64,000 bases of DNA from Candidatus Saccharimonadales bacterium. GTDB taxonomy: Bacteria > Patescibacteriota > Saccharimonadia > Saccharimonadales > UBA10212. Of the stretch, positions 359 through 24,236 are shown one piece after another; the stretch's first letter is position 1; every line of letters begins with the position of its first letter. Under the pieces are notes generated by a model that searched no databases, had not been told where the DNA came from, and saw only the letters and a program-made list of their open reading frames with translations. The stretch is from the NCBI GenBank assembly GCA_036507655.1, contig DATCIS010000019.1:10736-74735 (forward strand), given 5' to 3'. The position numbers were made by a program, and so were the translations under genes.

Positions 359-1342
359 CTAATTTGCAGACTGCGGTGAAAGACTGGTATCAAGAGACTC
401 GTATAAACTACTTAATTCGGCGGCTAATTCGTTATGGAGCGCAACCAATCTGTTATATTCGGCAATATCGCTTTTTAGTTGGATAATACCGGCATTATAG
501 TCGTTTACTGCCGCGTTAAAAGCCGTCACGGCAGCATTATATTCATTGACTCGCCCAGACACCCGCAGGCTATTCAGATGCCTTCTATCGGCTTCAAGCT
601 GGTCGAGTTGGCTGCTCAAGGCCTGCTCTTGGTTGTCTATCTTGTCCTTCAGAGTAGCCAGTTGCTGCTCGTAATCCTTGATCTTAGCTATGCGACTGGA
701 GAATTCGTCAGCATATTTACTGGCAAAAGCTACAACCGCCGAGCGGTTAGTGAAATAGCGCTGGTAATATGTCTCAAGCTCGGTATTTAGCACGCCTATC
801 TCAGTTGCAAAGATTGAATGCATCTCATTTAGTAGTTCGTCTGGTTCGGTCTGTTTATAGGTATCGATGGTCTCGAGAACTCTTTTATCATTAAGGTTGT
901 TGGTATAAAAATCATTCAAGAGCCCGTTAATACGTTGCTTCTCGCTCTGATTAAGGCGATCGTAAGCAGCGTGCAGCATTTCATGTGCCGCGGTGACCTC
1001 GACCACGCCGCTGAGCCTCGTGTCCTGAACGTTATAGATATAAATCACGCTGCTAAAGCTTGAGTGGTAACAACCAAGCACAATCGTTCGCTCAAAGCTC
1101 GGACAGGCTTGACGGAAAGCGGCGGCTTCTTCGATTAAATCAGGATGAGTGACATAAAATATGTGCTCGGCATCATCTGTCATAGTATCAGCTTTGGCAA
1201 TAGCCGTTATTTCTGGTGGCGGGGTGTAATTTCTGAGCCTCAGCCAATCCTCTATGGCCTGCAGATTAAACAGGCCAAATATCAGAAGCGCTAAGACTAC
1301 CAGGCTTGTTAACCCTACAAATACCCGCCTGAATCCGCTCAT
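359..1342 (-). CDS. membrane-anchored hypothetical protein with HExxH motif (HEMLH) and C-terminal coiled coil; possible zinc metallopeptidase
   Basis: N-terminal hydrophobic helix VFVGLTSLVVLALLIFGLF; TAAHEMLHAAYDRL HExxH motif; heptad-like Q/L/E-rich C-terminal third. Confidence 0.5.
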   Translation of the reverse strand: MSGFRRVFVGLTSLVVLALLIFGLFNLQAIEDWLRLRNYTPPPEITAIAKADTMTDDAEHIFYVTHPDLIEEAAAFRQACPSFERTIVLGCYHSSFSSVIYIYNVQDTRLSGVVEVTAAHEMLHAAYDRLNQSEKQRINGLLNDFYTNNLNDKRVLETIDTYKQTEPDELLNEMHSIFATEIGVLNTELETYYQRYFTNRSAVVAFASKYADEFSSRIAKIKDYEQQLATLKDKIDNQEQALSSQLDQLEADRRHLNSLRVSGRVNEYNAAVTAFNAAVNDYNAGIIQLKSDIAEYNRLVALHNELAAELSSLYESLDTSLSPQSAN

Positions 1343-1421: not shown

Positions 1422-3917
1422 CTATTCATTCTTGGATGAATAAGCCAGCTCAGGTTCTTTTCGCTTCTGTGATTTCTTAACCGCTACAGATACAACGTCA
1501 CCCTTGTGGAAAGTATCCTCCAACAGGCCGGCAGCAATCGCGTCTTCCAGAGTTTCCTGTAGCAAACGGCGCATCGGCCGGGCACCGTTATGCGCGTCGT
1601 AGCCTTTCTCAAGCAGATAGTCTTTGGCTGTTTTATTCACCTGCAGGCCGATGCCTTTTTTGACAAGACGGCTGCGTAGATCGTCAAGCTGTAAGTCTAA
1701 AATCCTCAAAGCGTCTTTCTTGGTTAGGGCGCGGAAGACGATTATCTTATCGATACGGTTCAGTAGTTCAGGCCTCATCATTCTTTTAATCTCGTCCAGG
1801 ACTTTTGTCTTGTTAGCGTCGTGCAGCTCATCAAGATTGTCCAGATCAGCAGCGCTAATAGCCGAGAAGCCAAAACTGGCCTCTTTTTGCAGTTTTTCGG
1901 CGCCGAGGTTACTGGTCATGATAATGATTGTATTCGTAAAGTCGATCTTACGGCCTTTGGCATCACTTAAAACACCGTCTTCAAGGATTTGCAGTAGAAT
2001 ATTGAAGACTTCCGGGTGGGCCTTCTCGATTTCGTCGAACAGCACTACGCTGTATGGCTGATGACGGATTTTATCCGTCAGCCGGCCGCCGTCGTCATAA
2101 CCTACGTACCCGGCCGGTGCGCCGACTAACCTGGCAACCGTGTGATGCTCACTAAATTCACTCATGTCGATTTTGACCAGCGTTTCTTCCGAACCGAAGA
2201 ACTCGCGGGCCAGCACACGGGCTAATTCTGTCTTGCCAACACCCGTCGGGCCAAGAAAAATAAATGAACCAATCGGCCTTTTTTCAGACGAGATACCGCT
2301 GCGTGAGCGGCGGACGGCCCGGGCTACGGTAGACACCGCTTCATCTTGGCCGATGATGTGCTTGCTCAAATTCTTCTCTAAACTAACAAGATACTTCGCC
2401 TCGGCGCGAATCACCTTGGTTACCGGAACACCTGTCATCCGTGATACGGTTTCAGCCACATCATCTGCGGACAAAGTTATCGGTTTACCAGCTTTGTGTG
2501 TCTTCTCAAGCTCTTTCATCTTTTCGTTAAGTTGGCTGGCAATCTGCTTTTCGCGCGCCGCTTTTTCATAATCTTCGGCATCAACCGCGTCTTCAATTCG
2601 TCCATTGACCAGTTTAAGTTCTTTTTGCAGCTGCCGCAGCTCGGGCGGAGTCTTACCCTTGTTTACTCGCAGGTAGGCGGCTGTTTCATCCAGCAAATCG
2701 ATAGCCTTATCCGGCATATAGCGGTCATTAATGTAACGGCGAGCGAATTGGACGGTGTCATCCAGCACTTCGTCATCAACCTTGACGCCGTGGAATTCCT
2801 CGTAGTATTTGCGCAAGCCCTTCAGAATAGCCAAAGTCTCAGACGGAGTGGCTTCAGGCACTTGGACCGGCTGGAAACGGCGTTCCAAGGCCGCATCTTT
2901 TTCGACGTGGCGGGTATATTCATCGGTAGTTGTTGCACCAACTAAGCGGATTTTGCCACGAGCCAGGCTCGGTTTGAGTATGTTGCCGGCATCCATTGAG
3001 CCTTCGGCAGCGCCGGCACCGACGATTAGGTGTAGCTCGTCAACGAAAACGATGGTTTCTTTGTCATTCTCGAGCTCGGCGATGACTTTCTTGAGACGGT
3101 CTTCGAACTCTCCGCGGTACTTAGTACCGGCAATCATACCGGCCAAGTCCAATGTAATAATTCGCTTGTTTAACAGGCTATCGGGCACTTCTTCATTGAT
3201 GATGCGTTGGGCAATACCCTCAACGATGGCTGTCTTTCCAACGCCAGGTTCGCCGATGAGCACCGGATTATTCTTGGTGCGGCGGTTCAGAATGGTAATT
3301 ACACGGCGGATTTGGGCTTCACGGCCGACTACTGGGTCTAGTTTGTTTTTACGCGCCAAATCGGTCATATCAGTGCCAAAGAATTCGAGTGTAGTTCTTC
3401 GCCCGCTTTTGCCCCGCCGGCGACCGGTGGCTCCGGATCTGTCATCTTCGTATTGCTGACGGTTAAGAAACTGTTCGACTTCGCCGCTCAGACGGTCGAT
3501 ATCCACCCCCATATCGCGCAGTAGAGTGGTAGCCCGGGCGTTCTTCTGGCTCAAAATGCTGTACAAGATGTGTTCTGTACCGCAGTAATCCTGATTAAAT
3601 TCCTGGGCGATTTCCCAAGCCATCTTCAAAGTTAACTTGGCGGTTTCGGATAGACCTTTACCGCCCATGTTAATAACTAGAGTCTTTGGTGTCAGATTAA
3701 GAGCCAAGCGCGCTCTGTCTAAATTAACGCCAACTCCTTCTAAAATTTTCGAACCCATTGAGCCCTCCTGGGCTAATACTCCTAGCAGCAGATGCTCGGT
3801 GCCAATGTAAGCGCTGCCCGATGCCCGGGCAATGGCGTCAGCGTGTTTTAATGAATGCAACGCGTTATTAGTCAAATGGCTTAAAAATTCTTGAAAATCC
3901 GGTGAATTTGGAATCAT
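1422..3917 (-). CDS. clpC: ATP-dependent Clp protease ATP-binding subunit ClpC (two AAA+ modules, Clp_N repeats, UVR-like linker)
   Basis: 831 aa; Walker A GEPGVGKTAI and GPTGVGKTEL, Walker B FVDELH and LFDEIEKA, sensor GARPMRR, N-terminal Clp_N repeat pair; TAG stop. Confidence 0.92.
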   Translation of the reverse strand: MIPNSPDFQEFLSHLTNNALHSLKHADAIARASGSAYIGTEHLLLGVLAQEGSMGSKILEGVGVNLDRARLALNLTPKTLVINMGGKGLSETAKLTLKMAWEIAQEFNQDYCGTEHILYSILSQKNARATTLLRDMGVDIDRLSGEVEQFLNRQQYEDDRSGATGRRRGKSGRRTTLEFFGTDMTDLARKNKLDPVVGREAQIRRVITILNRRTKNNPVLIGEPGVGKTAIVEGIAQRIINEEVPDSLLNKRIITLDLAGMIAGTKYRGEFEDRLKKVIAELENDKETIVFVDELHLIVGAGAAEGSMDAGNILKPSLARGKIRLVGATTTDEYTRHVEKDAALERRFQPVQVPEATPSETLAILKGLRKYYEEFHGVKVDDEVLDDTVQFARRYINDRYMPDKAIDLLDETAAYLRVNKGKTPPELRQLQKELKLVNGRIEDAVDAEDYEKAAREKQIASQLNEKMKELEKTHKAGKPITLSADDVAETVSRMTGVPVTKVIRAEAKYLVSLEKNLSKHIIGQDEAVSTVARAVRRSRSGISSEKRPIGSFIFLGPTGVGKTELARVLAREFFGSEETLVKIDMSEFSEHHTVARLVGAPAGYVGYDDGGRLTDKIRHQPYSVVLFDEIEKAHPEVFNILLQILEDGVLSDAKGRKIDFTNTIIIMTSNLGAEKLQKEASFGFSAISAADLDNLDELHDANKTKVLDEIKRMMRPELLNRIDKIIVFRALTKKDALRILDLQLDDLRSRLVKKGIGLQVNKTAKDYLLEKGYDAHNGARPMRRLLQETLEDAIAAGLLEDTFHKGDVVSVAVKKSQKRKEPELAYSSKNE

Positions 3918-3940
3918 AAATAAATTTTACTCCGTAAAAT

Positions 3941-3995
3941 TTAGCTGTTAGCCGATAGCCGTTAGCTAATAGCTAGCAGCTAATCGCTAATAGAT
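3941..3995. repeat. TAGC-rich low-complexity tract containing GCCGTTAGCT and AGCCGATAGCCG motifs
   Basis: ttagctgttagccgatagccgttagctaatagctagcagctaatcgctaatag; the same 10- and 12-mers recur at 10900-10924 and inside gatA at 19421-19452. Confidence 0.5.
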
Positions 3996-4008
3996 ATTGT
4001 AGCACAAA

Positions 4009-4035
4009 TTAGCACTCGTCAAGTTAGAGTGCTAA
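4009..4035. promoter_or_regulatory. CIRCE element (HrcA operator), perfect match TTAGCACTC-N9-GAGTGCTAA
   Basis: ttagcactc gtcaagtta gagtgctaa read directly; 92 nt upstream of the clpC ATG (minus) and 49 nt upstream of the 4084 ORF start (plus). Confidence 0.8.
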
Positions 4036-4083
4036 CTTGGGCTTATGCTTGCTATATCTCGGGTCGAGACTGATAATTGAGAT

Positions 4084-4557
4084 GTGAATTCAGGCGAAGT
4101 TTCAAGAGGTATCCCCGAAGCTGAAAAAGCAGCGGCTTATGATTTCTGTGAGTATATTAGGCACGCAGCCGAGCTAACCGAACAGGCAAAACGGCTTGAA
4201 TTGATAGCCCAAAGAGCCGGGTCAAATGTCATACAGAAAAGTATGTTTGGTAATTTACCTTTTGTGCTCAGTATTGATATCCCGTCAAGTACGGAGGCTT
4301 TCACCGTCCGAGATGATGATGTTATTGAGGAGCAACCGGCGGGTTTCGTGGCTACTGAAATACGGAGCGTCAGCGAGCATGGTGTTGAGTTTTATAATCG
4401 CAACACTGAAATCTGGCTTAAATTAAAGGGTTTTGAATTCGAAGTCTTTCCGGTTTTCGACGAACAGCAACCTGACACAGGGGGAATGGCCGAAGATTTA
4501 CTGGATGCAGCCCGAGAATCTAGTAAAGGTCTTGACCACTCCGACGACCTTGCCTAA
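4084..4557 (+). CDS. hypothetical protein (acidic C-terminus); GTG start as called, true start uncertain
   Basis: 157-aa ORF with no recognisable motif; no clear Shine-Dalgarno; sits immediately downstream of the CIRCE element. Confidence 0.35.
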   Translation: MNSGEVSRGIPEAEKAAAYDFCEYIRHAAELTEQAKRLELIAQRAGSNVIQKSMFGNLPFVLSIDIPSSTEAFTVRDDDVIEEQPAGFVATEIRSVSEHGVEFYNRNTEIWLKLKGFEFEVFPVFDEQQPDTGGMAEDLLDAARESSKGLDHSDDLA

Positions 4558-5795
4558 TCCTGTGTCTCTTTTTCGTCTTTTACTTCTTTTTTCTGTTTAC
4601 TGTCACCTGTAACCTGTCCGCTACCCTCGGTGCCGTGTTCTTCGATGGCCTCGAGCAGGGAGCTTTCCATATCGGTCTTCTTTTTTACTTGCTGGACAAC
4701 TGGCTTGGATTCAACTCCCGGTTGGATTTCCTCGGGCTTTTCTCTAACACCCTCGGCTTTCTCGGCCTCGACATCCAGCTCGTAGCCAGTCAACTTACCG
4801 GCTAATCGGACATTTTGGCCAGCTTTACCAATAGCTACACTAAGTTGGTCTTCCGGCACAATTACTGTGGCTTTCCGGCTTTTTTCATCGACTTTTACAC
4901 GCGTCACATTGGCCGGTTTCATAGCATTAGCAATAAATGTCGCTAAATCATCATCCCAAACGACAATATCTATCATCTCCTGGCTGCCGATTTCATCACG
5001 CACGGCATTGATACGGGTACCATGCCCGCCAACGAAAGTACCCACTGGGTCAATCCCCGGCACGTTACTGGAGACGGCGATTTTGGAACGGATTCCGGCT
5101 TCTCGGGCAATGGCTTTAATTTCGACAGCATCGCCACCCATCTCTGGCACCTCGGCGCGGAAAAGCTGTTCAACAAACTCTTTAGCCCCACGGCTAACAA
5201 TCAACTGCGGGCCACGGACGCTTTTCTCGACCTCTTTCAGATAAAACTTCAGGCGTTGGCCGGGGTGATAATGCTCACCCTGAATCTGATCGCTGATTGG
5301 CATAATACCCTGACCACGGCCAAGCTCAACCCTTATCAATCGGCCCTCAACCCGGCTGACTATGCCGTTAACAACTGTGCCGACTTTATCTTCAAACTCG
5401 CTCAAAACAATCTCGCGTTCGGCTTCGCGCAATCGCTGTAAAATAACTTGCTTGGCTGTCTGGGCCGCTACGCGGCCAAACTCTTTGACATTTTGAATCA
5501 TCTCCACTGTCTCACCGACTTTGGCGTTTTTACGCACGGCTTGGGCTTCAGCCAAGCTAATCTGCATATTAGGGTCTTCAACATTCTCAACCACCTCTTT
5601 GCTGAGATAAACAGTAACTTCGCCGGTATTTAAATTCATGGTCGCCCGGACTTCCTGGTCGCGGTCGCCGTAATCACGCCGCCAAGCGGCAGCCAAGGCC
5701 TGTTGCACGATATCTTGCACCTGCTCTTCCGGCAGATTTTTCTCTTCGGCAATGACTTTAATTGCCTGGGCCAGTTGTTTGAAATCCATCTCCAT
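4554..5795 (-). CDS. nusA: transcription termination/antitermination factor NusA
   Basis: 413 aa; N-terminal domain, S1 and tandem KH regions (RVKVDEKSRKATVIVPEDQLSVAIGKAGQNVRLAGKLTGYELD), acidic C-terminal tail. Confidence 0.92.
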   Translation of the reverse strand: MEMDFKQLAQAIKVIAEEKNLPEEQVQDIVQQALAAAWRRDYGDRDQEVRATMNLNTGEVTVYLSKEVVENVEDPNMQISLAEAQAVRKNAKVGETVEMIQNVKEFGRVAAQTAKQVILQRLREAEREIVLSEFEDKVGTVVNGIVSRVEGRLIRVELGRGQGIMPISDQIQGEHYHPGQRLKFYLKEVEKSVRGPQLIVSRGAKEFVEQLFRAEVPEMGGDAVEIKAIAREAGIRSKIAVSSNVPGIDPVGTFVGGHGTRINAVRDEIGSQEMIDIVVWDDDLATFIANAMKPANVTRVKVDEKSRKATVIVPEDQLSVAIGKAGQNVRLAGKLTGYELDVEAEKAEGVREKPEEIQPGVESKPVVQQVKKKTDMESSLLEAIEEHGTEGSGQVTGDSKQKKEVKDEKETQD

Positions 5796-8220: not shown

Positions 8221-8691
8221 ATGCCAAGAGTTTCCCAAGAAGAAAGACGTTGGAGCTATTTCGTCGAAATCGAAGACGTCGAAGAGCCGGACATGAAAGA
8301 TTTCGAAAGAGGGAAAAGGCTAGCTGAAGGCCTGGCAAAAATTAGGAACAGTCTTCTTAACGTAGACGATGAACACCTGAACATTAGATGGAGCTCCTTA
8401 AATAGGGCTCGTATCATAGTACTGCCTTCGTTTCCTGTTGAACGCGAAATAGTTAGGTCAGACGGGTTTTATGAATACACCTCTCCTCACGAAATTTCGG
8501 AGTCGGATATTCCTCTTGTAATCAACCATTTCGAGATAGTAAAGCCAAGGCTTGGGGAATCTATTCCTGAGGTCATTCTTATAAATGGCAGCGGTCCAAC
8601 TTATCACACGCCTCAAGGAGGATTCCAAGTTCAGGAACTTTACCGCAGTCTCGACTTATTACCACACAAGGTAGCAATGCAGAAGAGATAG
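8221..8691 (+). CDS. hypothetical protein
   Basis: 156-aa ORF on the opposite strand from its neighbours, convergent with rplS; no recognisable motif. Confidence 0.35.
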   Translation: MPRVSQEERRWSYFVEIEDVEEPDMKDFERGKRLAEGLAKIRNSLLNVDDEHLNIRWSSLNRARIIVLPSFPVEREIVRSDGFYEYTSPHEISESDIPLVINHFEIVKPRLGESIPEVILINGSGPTYHTPQGGFQVQELYRSLDLLPHKVAMQKR

Positions 8692-9265: not shown

Positions 9266-10864
9266 TTAACCGACAACTCTGTAGACTTCTTCGATGGTCG
9301 TCAGGCCAGCAAGGGCTTTTAGGACACCGTCCTGTTCCATCGTTTGCATACCATCTCTGACGGCCTGTGCCTCAAGCATTTCGGTTGTTACCTCATTCGG
9401 TGGTCGCCGTAATAATTCCTGTACTCCGGGTGTCATTAGAAGCTGCTCACGAATAGGCAATACGCCGGAATAACCAAACGGGTTATCAGCTGAGCTACCG
9501 GCATTGTAGAGAGTAGGGTTTTGCAAGTTCGGCCTTTGCACTTGAGACGGCAGCCGGTCTATGACTGTGAGCAAATGTTTTTTGAGGTTTTCATCGGGTT
9601 GGTAGGGTTGCTTGGTGGCGTCGTCCAACCGCCTAACTAGCCTTTGGGCCATAACTAGTCTCATAGCACTGGCAAACAACGGGTTGATGCCGACCATGTC
9701 CAGCATCCTTGATAAAGCCGCCGCCGCACTGCCGGCGTGGAAAGTCGTCAGCACCAGATGCCCTGTTAGTGCGCCTTGCAGAGCCGTTTTGGCGGTATCC
9801 TTGTCGCGAATTTCGCCAACCATTACTACATCGGGGTCGAGCCTAAGTACCGCCCGCAGCTTCTCGGCAAAACTTTCGGCTTCCAACGCGCCGTGCACCG
9901 GAATTTGGACCACTCCTGGCATGTTGTACTCAACTGGATCCTCCAAAGTTATGATTTTTCGCTCCGGGGTATTAAGCGTATTTAAAATCGAGTAAAGTGT
10001 GGTGGTTTTTCCCGAGCCGGTCGGACCGACGACGATAACCATACCAGTTGGGCGCTTAATAATATCTTGAACGGCCGCCATCTCTGGAGCGCTTAGGCTA
10101 AGGTTCTCGAGTTTGAAAAGTTCAAGTCTGAGGTTGAAAAGGCGCATAACGATGTCCATGCCATAAACGGTCGGAACGGTTTCGACACGCAGGTTGAGTG
10201 CTACTTCTTCGCCAGTGGCCATTTTGTATTGCCGACTGATGTGCCCTTGTTGGGCGTCGTCGGCGTTAGTTGAAACATTAGCCGCGCTGGCTATAGCCGC
10301 CGTTAGGTGACGGTACTTTTCGTGACCAACAAATGCTATTGGGTGCAGCACACCGTCGATGCGGAGGCGGACTCTGATGTTATCTTTTTGAGTTTCCAGA
10401 TGGATGTCGCTGGCTTTGAGCTTGTAAGCCTGCTGGACCAGGTATGCCAGCATGTCATCTGGCCGCACTTCTACTAGAGTTTTGCTGACCGTGTCGATTA
10501 TGTTCTGACGGCCAGCTTCGGCAATTGTTATATCGTGGTATTCAACCTGTTTTGGCGGGTCATAAAGCTGCATGTATTCGCGGAAACCGGCGTCAGATAT
10601 AAGCGAGAACTTGGTTATGTAATCAGTGAACCGGCCCCTGAGTTGATTTATTGTCTGCTGTGGGGTGGTGGTGATGATGCCGAAGTGGATATTGTGCTCA
10701 TCGGCCATCAATGGCACAACCCGCAGGCTGTAGAGCTCAGGCACAGCCAGGATAGTCTTATAAAGCTGTTTTTGCAGTTGCGAGGTGTCAATGTAGTTTA
10801 AGCCGAGAACTTGCGCTCGGCGCTGCGCCATTATTTCTTCGTCACGACGCCCACCCTGATTCAT
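9266..10864 (-). CDS. pilB: type IV pilus assembly ATPase PilB (GspE/PilB family secretion ATPase)
   Basis: 532 aa; N-terminal T2SSE_N-like region, Walker A VVGPTGSGKTTTLYS, Asp/His boxes; length fits PilB rather than PilT. Confidence 0.85.
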   Translation of the reverse strand: MNQGGRRDEEIMAQRRAQVLGLNYIDTSQLQKQLYKTILAVPELYSLRVVPLMADEHNIHFGIITTTPQQTINQLRGRFTDYITKFSLISDAGFREYMQLYDPPKQVEYHDITIAEAGRQNIIDTVSKTLVEVRPDDMLAYLVQQAYKLKASDIHLETQKDNIRVRLRIDGVLHPIAFVGHEKYRHLTAAIASAANVSTNADDAQQGHISRQYKMATGEEVALNLRVETVPTVYGMDIVMRLFNLRLELFKLENLSLSAPEMAAVQDIIKRPTGMVIVVGPTGSGKTTTLYSILNTLNTPERKIITLEDPVEYNMPGVVQIPVHGALEAESFAEKLRAVLRLDPDVVMVGEIRDKDTAKTALQGALTGHLVLTTFHAGSAAAALSRMLDMVGINPLFASAMRLVMAQRLVRRLDDATKQPYQPDENLKKHLLTVIDRLPSQVQRPNLQNPTLYNAGSSADNPFGYSGVLPIREQLLMTPGVQELLRRPPNEVTTEMLEAQAVRDGMQTMEQDGVLKALAGLTTIEEVYRVVG

Positions 10865-10971: not shown

Positions 10972-11508
10972 ATGCTCCGCATAGTTTTAATAGCGCATAA
11001 CGTACGCTCGGCCCACAATGTCGGCTCAATTCTACGCAGCGCCGACGGTTTTGGTGTGGAGAGGGTTTACCTGACCGGCTTTACGCCGCATCCGCAAACA
11101 AGCGATGATAAAAGGATGCCGCATGTGGCTAAACGAGCGGCGGATCAGATAGCCAAAACCGCTTTGGGGGCCTAAAAAAAACTTAATTGGCAGCACCGTT
11201 CAGATGTCATAAAACTGCTAGCCAAACTGAAAAAAGAGGGATTTTCATTGGCGGCTCTGGAACAAACCGACAAGGCCGTAGCTTTGCCAAATTTCAGTCC
11301 CACTAACGACATGGCCTTGATTGTCGGTAGCGAAATCGCCGGCATTGAGCAAAGCATATTGAATGCCGCTGAAATTCATCTGTCGATACCGATGCTAGGA
11401 AAAAAAGAGTCCTTTAACGTGGCTGTGGCAGCCGCTGTAGCGCTATACTATTTACGATGGTATAATCGTAAGCTGAATGACCGCCAAAATAAAAATGCGC
11501 TCATATAA
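10972..11508 (+). pseudogene. SpoU/TrmH-family RNA 2'-O-methyltransferase interrupted by one in-frame TAA at 11173-11175
   Basis: ORFs 10972-11175 and 11248-11508 share a frame. Read-through gives one ~178-aa SpoU protein: motif 1 [15 protein letters not shown], motif 2 ALIVGSEIAGI, motif 3 IPMLGKKESFNVAVAAAVALYY. The stop sits in ...LGA*KKLNWQ before an A8 run. Confidence 0.6.
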
Positions 11509-12538
11509 AACCGGCCATCGCTCACCCCGTAAACCAAAAGGGATAAGCGATAAGGCTTTTAGAAGAGTTTATTGGCCGTACCTACCGGTGGTTCTGATAA
11601 TTGGTGTTCTGCTGTCGTTTAGCTCGCAGGCCGGTGTCTTTTCGGCATTGATTCATCAACCAGGCGGCCGGGTTCTGGCCTACGCCACCAGTATGAGCAG
11701 CGGTGGACTTCAAGGCAGTACAAACAGCGCCAGGGCCCAAAACGGTGTAGCATCGCTACAAATAAACAGCAAGCTGGCGGCTGCCGCTCAGGCCAAAGCT
11801 GACGATATGGCCAGCCGTAATTACTGGAGCCACAACACACCCGAAGGCAACCCCCCTTGGACGTTCGTTACTGCCCAAGGATATAGCTACCAGAAACTCG
11901 GCGAGAACCTGGCCGCCGGTTTTAGTGATGAGCAATCGGCTATTAACGGTTGGATGGGTTCGCCGCCTCATCGAGACAATATGCTTGATTCGGCCTTTTT
12001 GGAGGTTGGCTTCGGCTGGGCCAGCAATCCAAACTACACTTCAGCTGGTGGTGGGCCGATGACGATTGTTGTGGCTTTTTATGGTAAGCCGCAGGTCCTA
12101 TCAAGCCAATCGTCAAACAATTCCACCCCACCGCCATCAGCGTCAGTTAAGTCAACAGCGCCGGCACCAACATCACCGGATATAACAATACAACCGCCAT
12201 CATCAGCGCCGGCCGAAGTTACCGAACCCAAGAATGAGGCTGCTACAGCGTCACCAAACACCGATACGAACATCAATTCATCTCAACTGGCTGGTAAATC
12301 CTCAAGGTTACAGCTTGTCTTAGCTAGCTTCCCAGTGGCTAAATTCGCCACCACATTTGCGCTTTTAGGAGCGGTCGCCGCCATTGCTATATGGCTGGGC
12401 CGACATGCGCTAGCGGTCCGCCGGGCTTTATTTAAAAGCGAGCGTTTTGCAATTAGGCACCCGATTCTAGACTTAGGCCTGCTAATCATCGCGGCGCTAT
12501 CCTACTTACTGACACAAACCGCCGGATTTATCCAATAG
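11477..12538 (+). CDS. CAP/SCP/PR1-like (YkwD-type) domain protein with N-terminal signal-anchor, Ser/Pro-rich linker and C-terminal transmembrane segments
   Basis: CAP core NGWMGSPPHRDNMLDSAFLEVGFGWA; low-complexity SSQSSNNSTPPPSASVKSTAPAPTSPDITIQPPSSAPA; hydrophobic tail; start probably at a downstream ATG (MRSYK...). Confidence 0.65.
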   Translation: MTAKIKMRSYKTGHRSPRKPKGISDKAFRRVYWPYLPVVLIIGVLLSFSSQAGVFSALIHQPGGRVLAYATSMSSGGLQGSTNSARAQNGVASLQINSKLAAAAQAKADDMASRNYWSHNTPEGNPPWTFVTAQGYSYQKLGENLAAGFSDEQSAINGWMGSPPHRDNMLDSAFLEVGFGWASNPNYTSAGGGPMTIVVAFYGKPQVLSSQSSNNSTPPPSASVKSTAPAPTSPDITIQPPSSAPAEVTEPKNEAATASPNTDTNINSSQLAGKSSRLQLVLASFPVAKFATTFALLGAVAAIAIWLGRHALAVRRALFKSERFAIRHPILDLGLLIIAALSYLLTQTAGFIQ

Positions 12539-12600: not shown

Positions 12601-15600
12601 CTACTTCACGACTATGTTGGTGGGGCCGAAAATAGCCGCTAAAGCACGCAGACTCTCCTCGTTGACGCTGATAGTTTGGGGTAATTTAATAGCCTGCTTG
12701 GCTTCAGGGTTGCCAGTAACAATGACCACCTCGGTATCACCTTGGAAACTATCCAGCTTATCCTTCAGGTTCATAAGCAGTGGCTGGTCCGAGCTGTTTT
12801 CTAGTCTAATGAATAGGCGCTGGGTAGAATCATTGTTATCACCCTTAGAGTCGGTGCCTTTGGCGGCGTCTTCGGGCGTAAGGATTCGGGCTTCTTCGAC
12901 AATCACTTTCCAATCATCGGTCTCTGAGTTGTCCCTATCACGTGTAGTTAGCCTGCCCTTGGCCAGTACGACATTATCTCTTATCCATAAATGCGGCTTG
13001 GCTTCATAGAATCTCGGGAAAACTATCAATTCTATCTCGCCGCTTAAATCAGCAATTTTAGCAAAAGCCATCTTTGAACCATTCTTAGTAGTTATCTCGC
13101 GGGTACTGGTAATTGAACCGCCCACTGTCACTTCACGCCCGTCCATTTCGGCTTCTAAACTGCCAATTGGTTTGGCCTGCTGGTCGAGCACGTCTGCGTA
13201 GTCATCGAGCGGGTGCTGGCTTAGATATAAACCGAGAAGTTCGCGCTCCCATGACAACTGAATGTTTTGAGAATATGGAACGGCCTCTTCGTCCCAGCGC
13301 ATTTTGAGCGAAGTCGCGGAGTCATCGCCGCCACCACCGAACAAATCAACTTGCCCGCTCAAAGTCTCTTTGCCTAGCCTCTGTGCCAGACTTAAGATGT
13401 TCTCGACATTGTTAAGTAACCGGCTGCGGTCTCCAAGCGAATCAATTGTGCCCGATTTAATCAGGCTCTCCAAAGCCTTGCGATTAACAATATGGGCGTT
13501 GACGTGCCGGCTGAAATCCTCGATTGATTTGAATTTGCCACCTAATTTTTCACGGGCCAGCAGAATTTCCTCGACCGTGCCGTGCCCGACGTTCTTTATG
13601 GCATCCAGTCCGAATCGTATCTGATTTTTACCCGGCACAACAGCGAATTCGTGGAATGATTCGTTTATATCCGGCGGCAGAACTTCAATGCCCATGTGCT
13701 TGCATTCGGTAATTTCAATAGCCAATCGGTCGATATTGTCATAATCACTGGTCATCAGCGCTGCCATAAAGGCCGCTGGATAATGAGCTTTGAGATAAGC
13801 GGTTTGGTAGGCAATCAGGCCATAGCAGGCGGAATGAACCTTATTAAAGCAATAAGCGGCAAACTCCTCTAGCTGGCGCCAGAAACGCTCCATCATCTTA
13901 CGGTCAGCGCCGACGGTTTTAATTCCCCCTTCAATGAAATCCTTCTTCAGCTTAGCCATGACGATTGGATTTTTCTTGCCTATGGCATAGCGTAGTGTAT
14001 CAGCATGGCCACCAGAGAATCCGCACATCTCCATGCTTATCTGCATCACTTGTTCTTGGTAGACAATCACCCCATAGGTATTTTCGAGGGCCGACTTCAT
14101 GGCCGGGTGGAGATATTCGATTTGGCGCTGCCCATGCTTACGAGCGATAAAATCTTCAATCCATTGCATCGGACCGGGGCGGTAGAGTGCAACCATGGCG
14201 ATGATATCTTCAAAAACGGTCGGTTTGAGCTGTTTCAGATACCGCTTCATACCGGCTGATTCAAGTTGAAAAACACCGGTCGTTTCACCTTTTTGCAGCA
14301 ACTCAAAGGTTTTTTTATCGTCAAGTGGAATCTCACCGATATCAATGTTTTTGCCGTAGACCTTCTTAACTATGCGTAGTGTATTTTTAATGATTGTCAG
14401 GTTAGACAAACCCAAGAAGTCCATCTTAAGGAGCCCTAGATCTTCTATCGGGAACATCGAGTACTGGGTAGCGATGGCTCCGCTCTGAGCCACTTCGAGC
14501 GGCACAAAATTAACAATTTCATCAGGTGCAATTACCACTCCGGCGGCATGAACGCCGTGGCTGCGAATAGTGCCCTCAAGCCGCATAGCCAAATCAAAAA
14601 CCTGTCTGGCTCTTCCGTTCTCAGCGTACTCCCGCTTCAAATCGGGTACCTGCTTCAGGTGTTGAGCCAAGGCTGTGTGCCTGCCCTGAACAGGTGGCGG
14701 AATCATTTTGGCTAATCTATCAGCCTCGGCATACGGCACCCGCAGTACCCGGGCGACATCTCTTACGGAGTTGCGTGCTGCCATCTGTCCGAATGTCACA
14801 ATGTTGGCTACCCTGTCGCGGCCATACTTTTCAATACAATAATTTATAACCTCATCACGCCTGTTGTCTTGGATGTCGATATCCATATCGGGCATGCTGA
14901 TGCGATCGGGGTTAAGAAAACGTTCAAAGAGCAGGTCGTATTTTAGTGGCTCGATCTCAGTAATACGCAAGCCGTAGGCCATTATCGAGCTGGCGGCGCT
15001 ACCGCGGCCAGGTCCGAACACTATTCCATGATCTTTCCCCCAATTAATAAAATCAGCCACGATTAGAAAATAGCCATTAAAATCCATGCTATTGACTACT
15101 CCTAGCTCATATTTCGCTCGGTCAATGACCTCCCCCCTTAAAGTCTTCTTGGCATCCGTAACTGTCAGCTTATTGGCCTTTGTACGTGAGACGCCGCCGT
15201 AACGCCACGCCAGACCCCGCCAGACCTCTTTTTCCAATAGGCTACGCTCGGTTTCACCCCTGGGTGTTGGAAACTGTGGGATTAGGATTTTGCCAAGCTC
15301 TAACTCAACGCCGCAGCGCTCAGCAATCTCACGTGTATTTTGTAACAACTCTGGGTGCTGCCTATTCCATCTTCTGATAATGTCTTTGGGGTCGGCCACC
15401 TGTAACTGAAAGTCTTTCAGGCTCATGCGCTCAGTGTCTTCTAAAAATGCTCCGGTTTGAATACAAAGAAGTACCTCGTGAGCTTCCTGATCCTCCTGCA
15501 TTAGATAGTGTGAATCGCAAGTAACGACAGCCGGTATGTTGAGTTCGCTACTTAGTTTGAGAAGGTCCTGGTTGACTCTGGTCTGTTCATCCCAAACATT

Positions 15601-16176
15601 CGGGTGCTCAGCGTGTCCGTGGTCTTGCAGCTCAAGATAATATCGATCGCCAAAAATCTTTTTATACCAGCTGGCAACTTTTTTAGCCTGCTCCAGCCGG
15701 CCGGATCTGAGTGCGTTGCCGAGTTCGCCCTGCAGGCAGCCGGAAAGGACAATAAGGCCTTCGTTATACTTTTCAATCAGTTCTTTATCTACTCTCGGAC
15801 GATAATAAAACCCCGCTAAGTTAGCGATTGAAGACAGACGCATGAGGTTCTGGTAGCCGGCATTATTGCTAGCTAGCATTGTCAGGTGATAAGCTGCCCG
15901 GTCATACGCCGGGTCCTTGTCCTTGTGAGAACGCGGAGCAACATAGGCCTCCATGCCGATTATCGGTTTGATATTGTGGTCTTTGGCGTGTTTATAAAAT
16001 TCAACCGCGCCGCTCATCAATCCGTGATCGGTCATGGCTACCGCCTCCATGCCAAGTTCAACCACTCGCTCCATTAATGCCGGAACTTTAGTCAGACCAT
16101 CCAGCAATGAATACTGAGTATGATTATGTAAGTGAACAAAGTCACTCGGCTTAAGTTTTACCCCCGGCTTGGCCAT
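12601..16176 (-). CDS. dnaE: DNA polymerase III alpha subunit
   Basis: 1191 aa; PHP domain FVHLHNHTQYSLLDG, polymerase core, OB fold. Confidence 0.95.
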   Translation of the reverse strand: MAKPGVKLKPSDFVHLHNHTQYSLLDGLTKVPALMERVVELGMEAVAMTDHGLMSGAVEFYKHAKDHNIKPIIGMEAYVAPRSHKDKDPAYDRAAYHLTMLASNNAGYQNLMRLSSIANLAGFYYRPRVDKELIEKYNEGLIVLSGCLQGELGNALRSGRLEQAKKVASWYKKIFGDRYYLELQDHGHAEHPNVWDEQTRVNQDLLKLSSELNIPAVVTCDSHYLMQEDQEAHEVLLCIQTGAFLEDTERMSLKDFQLQVADPKDIIRRWNRQHPELLQNTREIAERCGVELELGKILIPQFPTPRGETERSLLEKEVWRGLAWRYGGVSRTKANKLTVTDAKKTLRGEVIDRAKYELGVVNSMDFNGYFLIVADFINWGKDHGIVFGPGRGSAASSIMAYGLRITEIEPLKYDLLFERFLNPDRISMPDMDIDIQDNRRDEVINYCIEKYGRDRVANIVTFGQMAARNSVRDVARVLRVPYAEADRLAKMIPPPVQGRHTALAQHLKQVPDLKREYAENGRARQVFDLAMRLEGTIRSHGVHAAGVVIAPDEIVNFVPLEVAQSGAIATQYSMFPIEDLGLLKMDFLGLSNLTIIKNTLRIVKKVYGKNIDIGEIPLDDKKTFELLQKGETTGVFQLESAGMKRYLKQLKPTVFEDIIAMVALYRPGPMQWIEDFIARKHGQRQIEYLHPAMKSALENTYGVIVYQEQVMQISMEMCGFSGGHADTLRYAIGKKNPIVMAKLKKDFIEGGIKTVGADRKMMERFWRQLEEFAAYCFNKVHSACYGLIAYQTAYLKAHYPAAFMAALMTSDYDNIDRLAIEITECKHMGIEVLPPDINESFHEFAVVPGKNQIRFGLDAIKNVGHGTVEEILLAREKLGGKFKSIEDFSRHVNAHIVNRKALESLIKSGTIDSLGDRSRLLNNVENILSLAQRLGKETLSGQVDLFGGGGDDSATSLKMRWDEEAVPYSQNIQLSWERELLGLYLSQHPLDDYADVLDQQAKPIGSLEAEMDGREVTVGGSITSTREITTKNGSKMAFAKIADLSGEIELIVFPRFYEAKPHLWIRDNVVLAKGRLTTRDRDNSETDDWKVIVEEARILTPEDAAKGTDSKGDNNDSTQRLFIRLENSSDQPLLMNLKDKLDSFQGDTEVVIVTGNPEAKQAIKLPQTISVNEESLRALAAIFGPTNIVVK

Positions 16177-23183: not shown

Positions 23184-24236
23184 TTACTCCGGACCAGCGT
23201 ATTCTTCGGCTAAATCGGCGTTAGTTGGTAGGACAGCTAATTCATCATGGCTGAAGTTATATTGAATATCTGGTGCTCTATCCGATAACGACCCAGCTAT
23301 TCTCCGATAGCGGGCCATAAGTTCACTCCACAGTGAATGCGCCCCATGGTGCCTGACAGCTTCAATCAGCTCGTGATGCTTAAGATGGTTGAGCGATACA
23401 TCTTTAAGGTTAAGCGACACTGGTTGTTCGTCGTCGGAAATCAAATGCTCGGTATCCGCCCACCAACCCAAGCCCGGACTTAACTCATGCAGGGCTTCAG
23501 AGTAACCCTTTGGATTTAATGAATGCAGACCCGCCAAAAGCAGCAGGGTTAGGCATAATACCGAAGCCTGGTTTAATTCTTCCGAAGGCCATACGGATAC
23601 AACGCCGATTTGTTGGTTGATTACAAAGTGAGACTGCGGACCCTTTAAACCCCGCCAGTGTTCGGCTTTAAGGTTTATTATTTTTGCCGGGCGCAGTTCG
23701 TACTGAGAAGCACTCAACTTGGGCAGATTTTTAGCGACATTTCTCTGCCAGGTGGTTGATTCCAGAACCGAACCGGCCAAGAATATCTCTGAGATATCTT
23801 GGCGTTTAATCATCGAGGCAACCGAACGATAGTGTAGACGCCTAGCGACGCGTTTTGGCGGGTATTTGACGAGGGTGGCCTTGGCAACGGCATTCTTGAC
23901 CACCCACACCTCGTCTGTTGAGGCGCAATGCTTCACAAGCTGGATGGCCTTGTTTAGGCGTTCGCTGAGCTTGGTAGAGTCATCGACTCCTAGTGCTTTA
24001 TCTAGTATCTGCGAATCTCTTTCGAACCGAGCTTGAAGCGCATGGTAAAGTTCTTCGTCGGTGGTGTCGTTTGCATCCAAACCAAGCTGCTCAATTTTAC
24101 TGCGCAGCTTATGTTTATTTTCGGCCATCAGCCTGATATCTTCGCTGGAAAAACCACATTGCTCTTCCAATACTGACAGGTCTTTGGCGACTTCCTCCTC
24201 ATGCTTATCTAGAAGTTTGGCCAGATTCCTTGACAT
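23184..24236 (-). CDS. hypothetical protein
   Basis: 350 aa, no recognisable motif; 2-bp spacing to both neighbours. Confidence 0.45.
   Translation of the reverse strand: MSRNLAKLLDKHEEEVAKDLSVLEEQCGFSSEDIRLMAENKHKLRSKIEQLGLDANDTTDEELYHALQARFERDSQILDKALGVDDSTKLSERLNKAIQLVKHCASTDEVWVVKNAVAKATLVKYPPKRVARRLHYRSVASMIKRQDISEIFLAGSVLESTTWQRNVAKNLPKLSASQYELRPAKIINLKAEHWRGLKGPQSHFVINQQIGVVSVWPSEELNQASVLCLTLLLLAGLHSLNPKGYSEALHELSPGLGWWADTEHLISDDEQPVSLNLKDVSLNHLKHHELIEAVRHHGAHSLWSELMARYRRIAGSLSDRAPDIQYNFSHDELAVLPTNADLAEEYAGPE

Follow-up and report, generated by a model that had tools for sequence, protein, structure and literature searches.

The closest described relatives of the locus analysed here are two variants of HrcA/CIRCE control and the CtsR regulon. 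In the B. subtilis type (class I heat-shock regulation), which also exists in other bacteria, HrcA acts on the dnaK and groESL operons. The B. subtilis CIRCE operator is situated downstream of the transcription start and ahead of the start codon, and it is part of the mRNA in the dnaK and groE leaders. The HrcA repressor needs GroEL to stay active, as it is known from Bacillus and Chlamydia. To our knowledge, transcriptional regulation in Patescibacteria/CPR is almost unexplored, and a full-text search found no literature linking HrcA or CIRCE to Saccharibacteria, Patescibacteria or CPR. [quoted passage not shown] On HrcA, Wilson et al. (2005) is cited in PMC4652624.

Here we describe a CIRCE element in front of clpC in a Saccharibacteria genome. 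The window, i.e. the whole stretch of 64,000 nucleotides that was analysed, carries the element between clpC and a divergent open reading frame (ORF). Comparison of related sequences makes it probable that a genuine HrcA operator is fused to the clpC promoter in Saccharibacteria (CPR) and that clpC is under HrcA repression.

The CIRCE operator and the probable promoter of clpC

The features to which we refer are the following:

359..1342, minus strand: gene of a 327-aa predicted coiled-coil protein, on the same strand as clpC and separated from it by a 79-nt gap, followed by radA beyond the window start
1422..3917, minus strand: clpC, 831 aa, the gene that the operator is predicted to control (Pfam Clp_N, AAA, AAA_lid_9, AAA_2 and ClpB_D2-small)
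3918..3989, minus strand: predicted clpC 5' leader of approximately 72 nt (tandem repeats at 3942-3993 and RNA fold)
3996..4004, minus strand: probable extended -10 box of clpC, TGcTACAAT, 7 nt past the CIRCE arm (anchored alignment)
4009..4035, no strand: CIRCE operator with arms TTAGCACTC and GAGTGCTAA and a 9-nt spacer, predicted HrcA site (consensus match and conservation)
4017..4022, minus strand: probable -35 box of clpC, TTGACG, with five of its bases within the CIRCE spacer and the sixth within the arm (sequence)
4049..4077, plus strand: own promoter of the 157-aa ORF, TTGCTA-17-GATAAT, 14 nt from the operator (promoter scan)
4084..4557, plus strand: 157-aa ORF with GTG start, between nusA and clpC (homologs 52-56% identical)
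4554-5795, minus strand: nusA, the neighbour convergent with the 157-aa ORF

The sequence TTAGCACTCGTCAAGTTAGAGTGCTAA at 4009-4035 agrees with the CIRCE consensus TTAGCACTC-N9-GAGTGCTAA at 18 of 18 positions with 0 mismatches, as the first-pass annotation of this DNA had claimed. Its distances to the flanking genes were also given correctly there, with 91 nt between CIRCE and the clpC ATG (3917) and 48 nt between CIRCE and the GTG at 4084. It is the sole CIRCE match in the 64-kb window, even if up to three mismatches are permitted, and at up to five mismatches the window gains just two sites, both with 5 mismatches. By chance, 0.02 CIRCE matches are expected in the window, and any match occurred in 2 of 100 dinucleotide-preserving shuffles. 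The element is located in the promoter/5' region of a proteostasis gene, where it overlaps the predicted -35 box and promoter spacer of clpC. Judged by its sequence, position and phylogenetic footprint, the element at 4009-4035 qualifies as a true CIRCE.

In the direction of clpC, the sequence reads TTAGCACTC-TAACTTGAC-GAGTGCTAA-TTTGTGC-TACAAT. The spacer between the probable -35 and -10 boxes is 15 nt long and thus suboptimal, compared to 16-18 nt in the relatives. The promoter scan of the window did not call the TTGACG/TACAAT promoter, because its spacer is below the minimum of 16 nt set in the tool; the assignment is based on the comparison with relatives and on the TG-extended -10 box. A TTGxxx hexamer is present inside the CIRCE spacer at all Saccharibacteria clpC loci. 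In the five Saccharibacteria genome loci, a TATTAT, TATAAT, TATACT or TATTCT box follows 4-6 nt past the arm, the promoter spacer measures 17 nt and the orientation is always toward clpC. A TAnnnT box past the arm is likewise found in all eight metagenomic clpC loci discussed below and also in the genome loci. Since both the -35 and the -10 box face clpC and this layout is conserved before clpC, it is strongly supported that the operator belongs to clpC and not to the divergent 157-aa ORF.

This arrangement suggests a simple mechanism. An HrcA dimer on the palindrome would cover the -35 box and spacer of clpC, so that RNA polymerase would be excluded and clpC repressed. The genes of the coiled-coil protein and RadA would probably be repressed along with it. 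By analogy with the known systems, unfolded protein would titrate GroEL, thereby HrcA would become inactive and clpC would be derepressed together with hrcA-grpE, dnaK, dnaJ and groES. HrcA binding to the clpC CIRCE, its GroEL dependence and the induction by stress are inferred.

The naming of clpC is justified by several features of the protein. It combines a pair of Clp_N repeats and two AAA+ modules with a short UVR-like middle domain, the ortholog at locus L099 gives a UVR Pfam match, an FGF loop ('...KEASFGFSAIS...') occupies the ClpP-docking position of ClpC/ClpA/ClpX, and the scores stay under the ClpA and ClpB equivalog cut-offs. An identical ClpC is encoded on a 103-kb ENA metagenome contig (ERZ27254795 k141_3952430). 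Downstream, the gap of 79 nt to the 327-aa gene contains no convincing terminator, and the order clpC-hypothetical-radA is kept in L099, on the source contig and in the cultivated Saccharibacterium Southlakia (SEML1_0512-0510). The short gap, the lack of a convincing terminator in it and the conserved order make co-transcription of clpC with the coiled-coil gene and radA probable. The coiled-coil protein of approximately 330 aa between clpC and radA is common to the window, L099 (6473-7474) and Southlakia (SEML1_0511). It has no significant family match and gave sub-threshold hits of the AAA_13 and SMC/Rad50 type only; we regard it as a candidate for a ClpC partner/adaptor or a DNA-repair factor.

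The TAGC-rich repeat tract that the first-pass annotation placed beside the operator is real; it consists of tandem repeats with periods of 7/14 at 3942-3993 and belongs to the clpC 5' leader. The heptad 'TAGC' repeats form hairpin 1 of the leader (approximately 3990-3948), and hairpin 2 (3943-3921) has a stem of 10 bp, nearly all of them A-U, whose loop contains the GGAG Shine-Dalgarno sequence (3933-3930). The predicted fold has -24 kcal/mol (z = -3.76), and none of 200 shuffles reached this stability. The clpC leaders of relatives are short or unstructured, hence the structure is lineage-specific. A search for an Rfam family of the clpC leader gave no match. We considered the repeat tract also as a conserved RNA element or as a source of extra HrcA half-sites and rejected both, given the unstructured leaders of the relatives and the missing Rfam match. 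The predicted hairpins are possibly a lineage-specific add-on with a role in mRNA stability or a thermometer-like function of the fourU/ROSE kind.

Two further observations concern the clpC leader. The window and the 103-kb ENA contig show one difference in 11,342 aligned bases, a T/C at 3971, which is situated among the heptad repeats and affects the pair that closes the inner loop of hairpin 1. Furthermore, in the Nanosyncoccus-like loci the clpC ATG is found 6 nt past the -10 box, which implies a leaderless clpC mRNA there; a clpC start 6 nt past the -10 box was seen in L006, L142, L177, L151, L118 and L140.

Conservation of the operator at clpC and the divergent gene

For an unbiased view, 80 ClpC loci were collected by ClpC protein similarity with one genome per GTDB species and with no selection for CIRCE. 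The closest relatives, all of them Candidatus Saccharibacteria, show ClpC identities of 72, 61, 51, 47 (a Nanosyncoccus) and 48%; the identities in all other phyla are at or under approximately 47%. A CIRCE with at most two mismatches was found in all five Saccharibacteria loci, 41-103 nt upstream of the start of the clpC match. In the other phyla (75 loci), no CIRCE occurs within -400 to +60 of clpC, even at up to three mismatches. The CIRCE is perfect before clpC in L003, L005, L006 and L007. In L004 it reads TTGGCACTC-N9-GAGTGCCAA, with both arms changed symmetrically, as it is expected of a palindrome that binds a dimer. Across the clpC loci, the arms are conserved, and the spacer and flanks vary.

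The genes upstream differ. nusA, on the same strand, directly precedes CIRCE-clpC in L004 and L007, a tRNA-like sequence (recognised by eye) is located upstream in L006, and an unrelated divergent gene in L005; in the window, the 157-aa ORF takes this place. From these changing upstream neighbours it follows that the CIRCE travels with clpC. Eight further metagenomic clpC loci have the same CIRCE-promoter design, six of which are Saccharibacteria-like by their neighbouring genes or ClpC identity; they were found via the CIRCE pattern itself and thus serve as illustrations, not as an unbiased test. One of them, L099, has the order nusA-CIRCE-clpC-coiled coil-radA.

These comparisons bear on the possibility that the palindrome is a chance inverted repeat, a terminator or an RNA hairpin of the upstream gene rather than a protein operator. 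The terminator scan indeed flags a weak hairpin with a T-rich tail at 4019-4040 on the plus strand, and only a short distance separates the nusA stop codon from the element in L004 and L007. However, in the window an oppositely oriented ORF lies between nusA and the element, an embedded promoter facing clpC invariably accompanies the element, and its arms agree with the CIRCE consensus at each base down to 47% ClpC identity with no compensatory changes, which speaks against an RNA stem. A chance palindrome has to be set against the expectation of 0.02 per window. On conservation and chance expectation together, we rejected a terminator or chance palindrome, and we give this whole group of explanations next to no weight.

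The usual clpC regulator in other bacteria provided a positive control. When we searched for the CtsR box (A/G)GTCAAA-NAN-(A/G)GTCAAA, such boxes appeared approximately 2-2.3 kb upstream of clpC in 18 other loci, by record title mostly of Clostridia/other Bacillota, which is the position expected for a ctsR-mcsA-mcsB-clpC operon. Hence the control works, and the view that CtsR usually regulates clpC is supported by these 18 loci; such boxes occur in 0 Saccharibacteria loci. The window has no CtsR box at up to one mismatch, there is none within 3.5 kb upstream of clpC in Saccharibacteria, and no ctsR, mcsA or mcsB gene precedes clpC in the window or on the source contig. CtsR control of the window clpC was rejected, because the box is absent both in the window and at Saccharibacteria clpC. 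The alternative raised in the first-pass annotation, HrcA control of clpC, gained strong support from the comparison: the CIRCE overlaps the probable clpC promoter and is kept at every Saccharibacteria clpC examined, with changing upstream neighbours.

The same annotation had offered the divergent 157-aa ORF as a new member of the HrcA regulon. Homologs with 52-56% identity exist in a few metagenome proteins, and the family comprises 44 cluster representatives of 125-170 aa with one invariant Cys. In the AF2 model (pLDDT 89), a long helix at the N-terminus is followed by a beta domain of eight strands and by another helix at the C-terminus; it has no significant PDB match. The TGCTTGC...-17-(G/A)ATAAT promoter is also present before the homologs in L084 and L206, and the homolog loci L083, L084, L206 and L207 have neither a CIRCE (up to 4-5 mismatches) nor a clpC neighbour. 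The ORF is absent from nusA-CIRCE-clpC in L004, L007 and L099. It is best read, from this distribution, as a real gene that was inserted lineage-specifically between nusA and clpC. Its GTG is located 6 nt past its -10 box, which makes its mRNA probably leaderless.

It is conceivable that the CIRCE is shared by back-to-back promoters and that HrcA also or even mainly controls this ORF. The operator is just 14 nt upstream of the -35 box of the ORF (4049) and 48 nt from its start codon, and a repressor at approximately -75 to -49 of the ORF start could disturb upstream promoter contacts. Nevertheless, the operator does not overlap the core promoter of the ORF, the conserved CIRCE-clpC arrangement exists in L004, L007 and L099 without the ORF, the homologs in L083, L084 and L206/L207 keep the promoter without CIRCE or clpC, and the 157-aa protein shows no chaperone- or protease-like domain or fold match. 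A conserved regulon membership is not supported by this comparison, since the ORF is served by a separate promoter that the operator does not reach and four homolog loci lack CIRCE and clpC; we consider a shared operator unlikely. As the operator ends only 14 nt upstream of the -35 box, a modest influence of bound HrcA on the ORF promoter is possible.

With regard to the ORF family, it can be added that the window ORF and its L083 homolog have their GTG (at 4072-4086 of the window and 457-472 of L083) 6-7 nt past a (G/C)ATAAT box in a shared ATGTGA context, which suggests leaderless, GTG-initiated mRNAs. Moreover, L084 contains two tandem paralogs of the family (2-361 and 433-879).

HrcA in the phylum and promoter-fused operators in metagenome loci

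The window does not encode hrcA, groES/EL or dnaK according to Pfam searches of size-matched ORFs, and an HMM built from short HrcAs did not detect hrcA among all window ORFs. The 10 kb beyond the window start on the source contig are equally free of hrcA, groES/EL and dnaK. Given that the window and its reachable flank are without hrcA, the repressor is known at the level of the lineage and not in the source organism. As to the remaining content of the window, two ORFs have no Pfam match (8221-8691, plus strand, 156 aa; 23184-24236, minus strand, 350 aa). It also contains a 1191-aa ORF (12601-16176, minus strand), a type II/IV secretion ATPase (9266-10864) and a CAP-domain protein (11477-12538).

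In Southlakia epibionticum, SEML1_0720 is annotated as K03705 (HrcA), has the domains PF01628 and PF03444 and a length of 242 aa, and belongs to the gene order gmk-hrcA-grpE-dnaK (PMC10633639). All three Tn-seq analyses in that study classified hrcA as essential; clpC and clpP were scored non-essential. Its gene tables contain no annotated CtsR, McsB, MecA, HspR or other heat-shock regulator (PMC10633639). The order nusA-clpC-hyp-radA is represented by SEML1_0513 to 0510, as at the window (PMC10633639). Published TM7x transcriptomes report mostly on host genes and nothing specific on TM7x clpC or hrcA. Among the metagenome loci, L117 and L199 have the Southlakia-like order gmk-hrcA-grpE...dnaK with a CIRCE before hrcA and two tandem CIRCEs before dnaK, and L117 has an additional CIRCE before dnaJ. 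These hrcA/dnaK loci were tentatively placed in Saccharibacteria by synteny with Southlakia and weak protein similarities. With a short hrcA behind its own CIRCE, an autoregulated hrcA is, as read from gene arrangement, present in the lineage.

The HrcAs with fused operator are 217-245 aa long (L107, 271-981; L117, 5138-5854; L190, 8438-9139; L089, 7334-8020; L122, 5148-5885). An alignment with HrcAs of 343-370 aa shows that a contiguous block of approximately 100 residues is missing from their middle, where the longer proteins have the inserted dimerisation-type domain. Short and long HrcAs do not differ in the winged-helix motif SSATIRNEM...PHTSAGRIPTDKGYRFY.

The shortened protein could raise the suspicion that the operator is functional but read by a non-canonical HrcA or another regulator, or independently of GroEL. 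In addition to the missing block, it would fit this explanation that the short HrcA aligns by sequence to the solved T. maritima HrcA in the winged-helix domain only, and that ECOD assigns two of the 1STZ domains to SEML1_0720. The invariant DNA-binding motif speaks against it, as does the classical autoregulatory arrangement, in which the short hrcA genes follow the same CIRCE, and the lack of any other annotated heat-shock regulator in Southlakia. We regard such a deviation from canonical HrcA control as very unlikely.

The combination of operator and promoter is not restricted to clpC. The pattern TTAGCACTC-TTGN6-GAGTGCTAA-TT was found at 120 metagenome loci, for which the first downstream gene was scored and representatives were confirmed by Pfam. 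A TAnnnT box 2-9 nt past the right arm was counted as -10 box, with the following result for each downstream product:

Short HrcA (217-245 aa): -10 box in 20 of 21 loci
DnaK: 16 of 16 loci
ClpC: 8 of 8 loci
DnaJ: 5 of 5 loci
ClpB without N-domain: 4 of 4 loci
ClpP: 4 of 4 loci
Full-length ClpB: 3 of 3 loci
Hsp20: 2 of 2 loci
GroES: 2 of 3 loci
Long HrcA (several with streptococcal-type N-termini, by eye): 2 of 19 loci
HtpG: 0 of 5 loci

Thus, the loci of long HrcA and HtpG match the pattern, but the adjacent -10 box is mostly missing. Operators of hrcA, dnaK and dnaJ outside the pattern selection contain a TTGACA-like hexamer in the spacer, too. Tandem CIRCEs 18-23 nt apart precede dnaK in L107 (2960-3031), L199 (5037-5108), L190 (5183-5259), L117 (3304-3376) and L171 (10716-10787), one with the -35 box and the other nearer to the gene, whereas clpC has a single operator.

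Several of these loci deserve a separate mention. An N-domain-less, ClpB-like double-AAA+ protein of 711-728 aa is encoded behind a fused CIRCE-promoter in L148 (568-2703), L102, L170 and L194; L148 is an 820-kb contig that may represent a near-complete CPR genome. In L116, L133, L166 and L192, clpP has its own fused CIRCE-promoter, and these ClpPs share 60-65% identity with the Nanosyncoccus protein. Nanosyncoccus-like genomes have clpP approximately 1 kb downstream of clpC, with no separate CIRCE (L006, 8007-8591; L177, 3864-4286). Genes of small FmdB-type zinc-ribbon proteins (PF09723) follow a pattern-matching CIRCE without adjacent -10 box in L121 (56-397) and L136 (624-911); in other lineages, the HrcA regulon may extend to such genes.

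On a wider reading of these data, proteostasis in Saccharibacteria, and probably in much of the CPR, would be governed by just one master repressor, a truncated HrcA that works via promoter-fused operators. Its proposed regulon would comprise hrcA-grpE, dnaK, dnaJ, groES/EL, clpC, clpB, clpP and hsp20. We put this forward tentatively, as a possibility about which we are more doubtful than confident. If it were true, the loss of HrcA would unleash unfoldase/protease expression; the inclusion of ClpCP in such an expanded regulon could be the reason why hrcA is essential and clpC and clpP are non-essential in the Southlakia Tn-seq data.

Comparison with the described systems

The proposed HrcA-clpC link is concrete, conserved and testable in a phylum with genetically tractable members, and the compact operator-in-promoter design might be used in Saccharibacteria genetics to make expression inducible by stress. 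The link is also an example of regulon rewiring in reduced genomes, with CtsR/McsAB in Bacillota versus HrcA in Saccharibacteria, parallel to clpB and lon in Mollicutes.

With the B. subtilis type, the system shares the operator consensus, and hrcA of the phylum has both Pfam domains and is located next to grpE-dnaK. In contrast to B. subtilis, the target is clpC, which encodes an Hsp100 unfoldase, instead of a class I chaperone operon, and the Saccharibacteria repressor is approximately 100 aa shorter. Furthermore, since the Saccharibacteria clpC CIRCE overlaps the -35 box and spacer, it is predicted not to be transcribed, unlike in B. subtilis.

The Mollicutes resemble Saccharibacteria in their reduced genomes, few regulators and HrcA/CIRCE at genes of AAA+ disaggregases/proteases, as far as covered by the accessible part of the source. 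There, tandem CIRCEs are given for dnaK and clpB, whereas the loci compared here have tandem CIRCEs before dnaK and single ones before clpC, clpB, clpP and dnaJ. Neither clpC nor clpP is among the HrcA-controlled promoters named in that part of the source (PMC5138195). A further difference is that the present system occurs in Patescibacteria/CPR and has the promoter embedded in the operator spacer. With regard to its targets, clpC and, in related loci, clpP, dnaJ and hsp20 set it apart.

The CtsR regulon of Bacillota (ctsR-mcsA-mcsB-clpC, clpP and clpE) likewise places clpC, followed by radA, under a dedicated stress repressor. The window and the Saccharibacteria clpC loci, however, lack the CtsR heptad-repeat box, ctsR/mcsA/mcsB do not precede clpC and are not annotated in Southlakia either; the repressor appears to have been replaced, not shared. 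Hence, from the loci compared, HrcA/CIRCE appears to play in Saccharibacteria the part that in Bacillota falls to CtsR at clpC. The type of system as such is well known; what the conserved sequence arrangement points to is clpC as a new, lineage-conserved target of the canonical HrcA/CIRCE operator.
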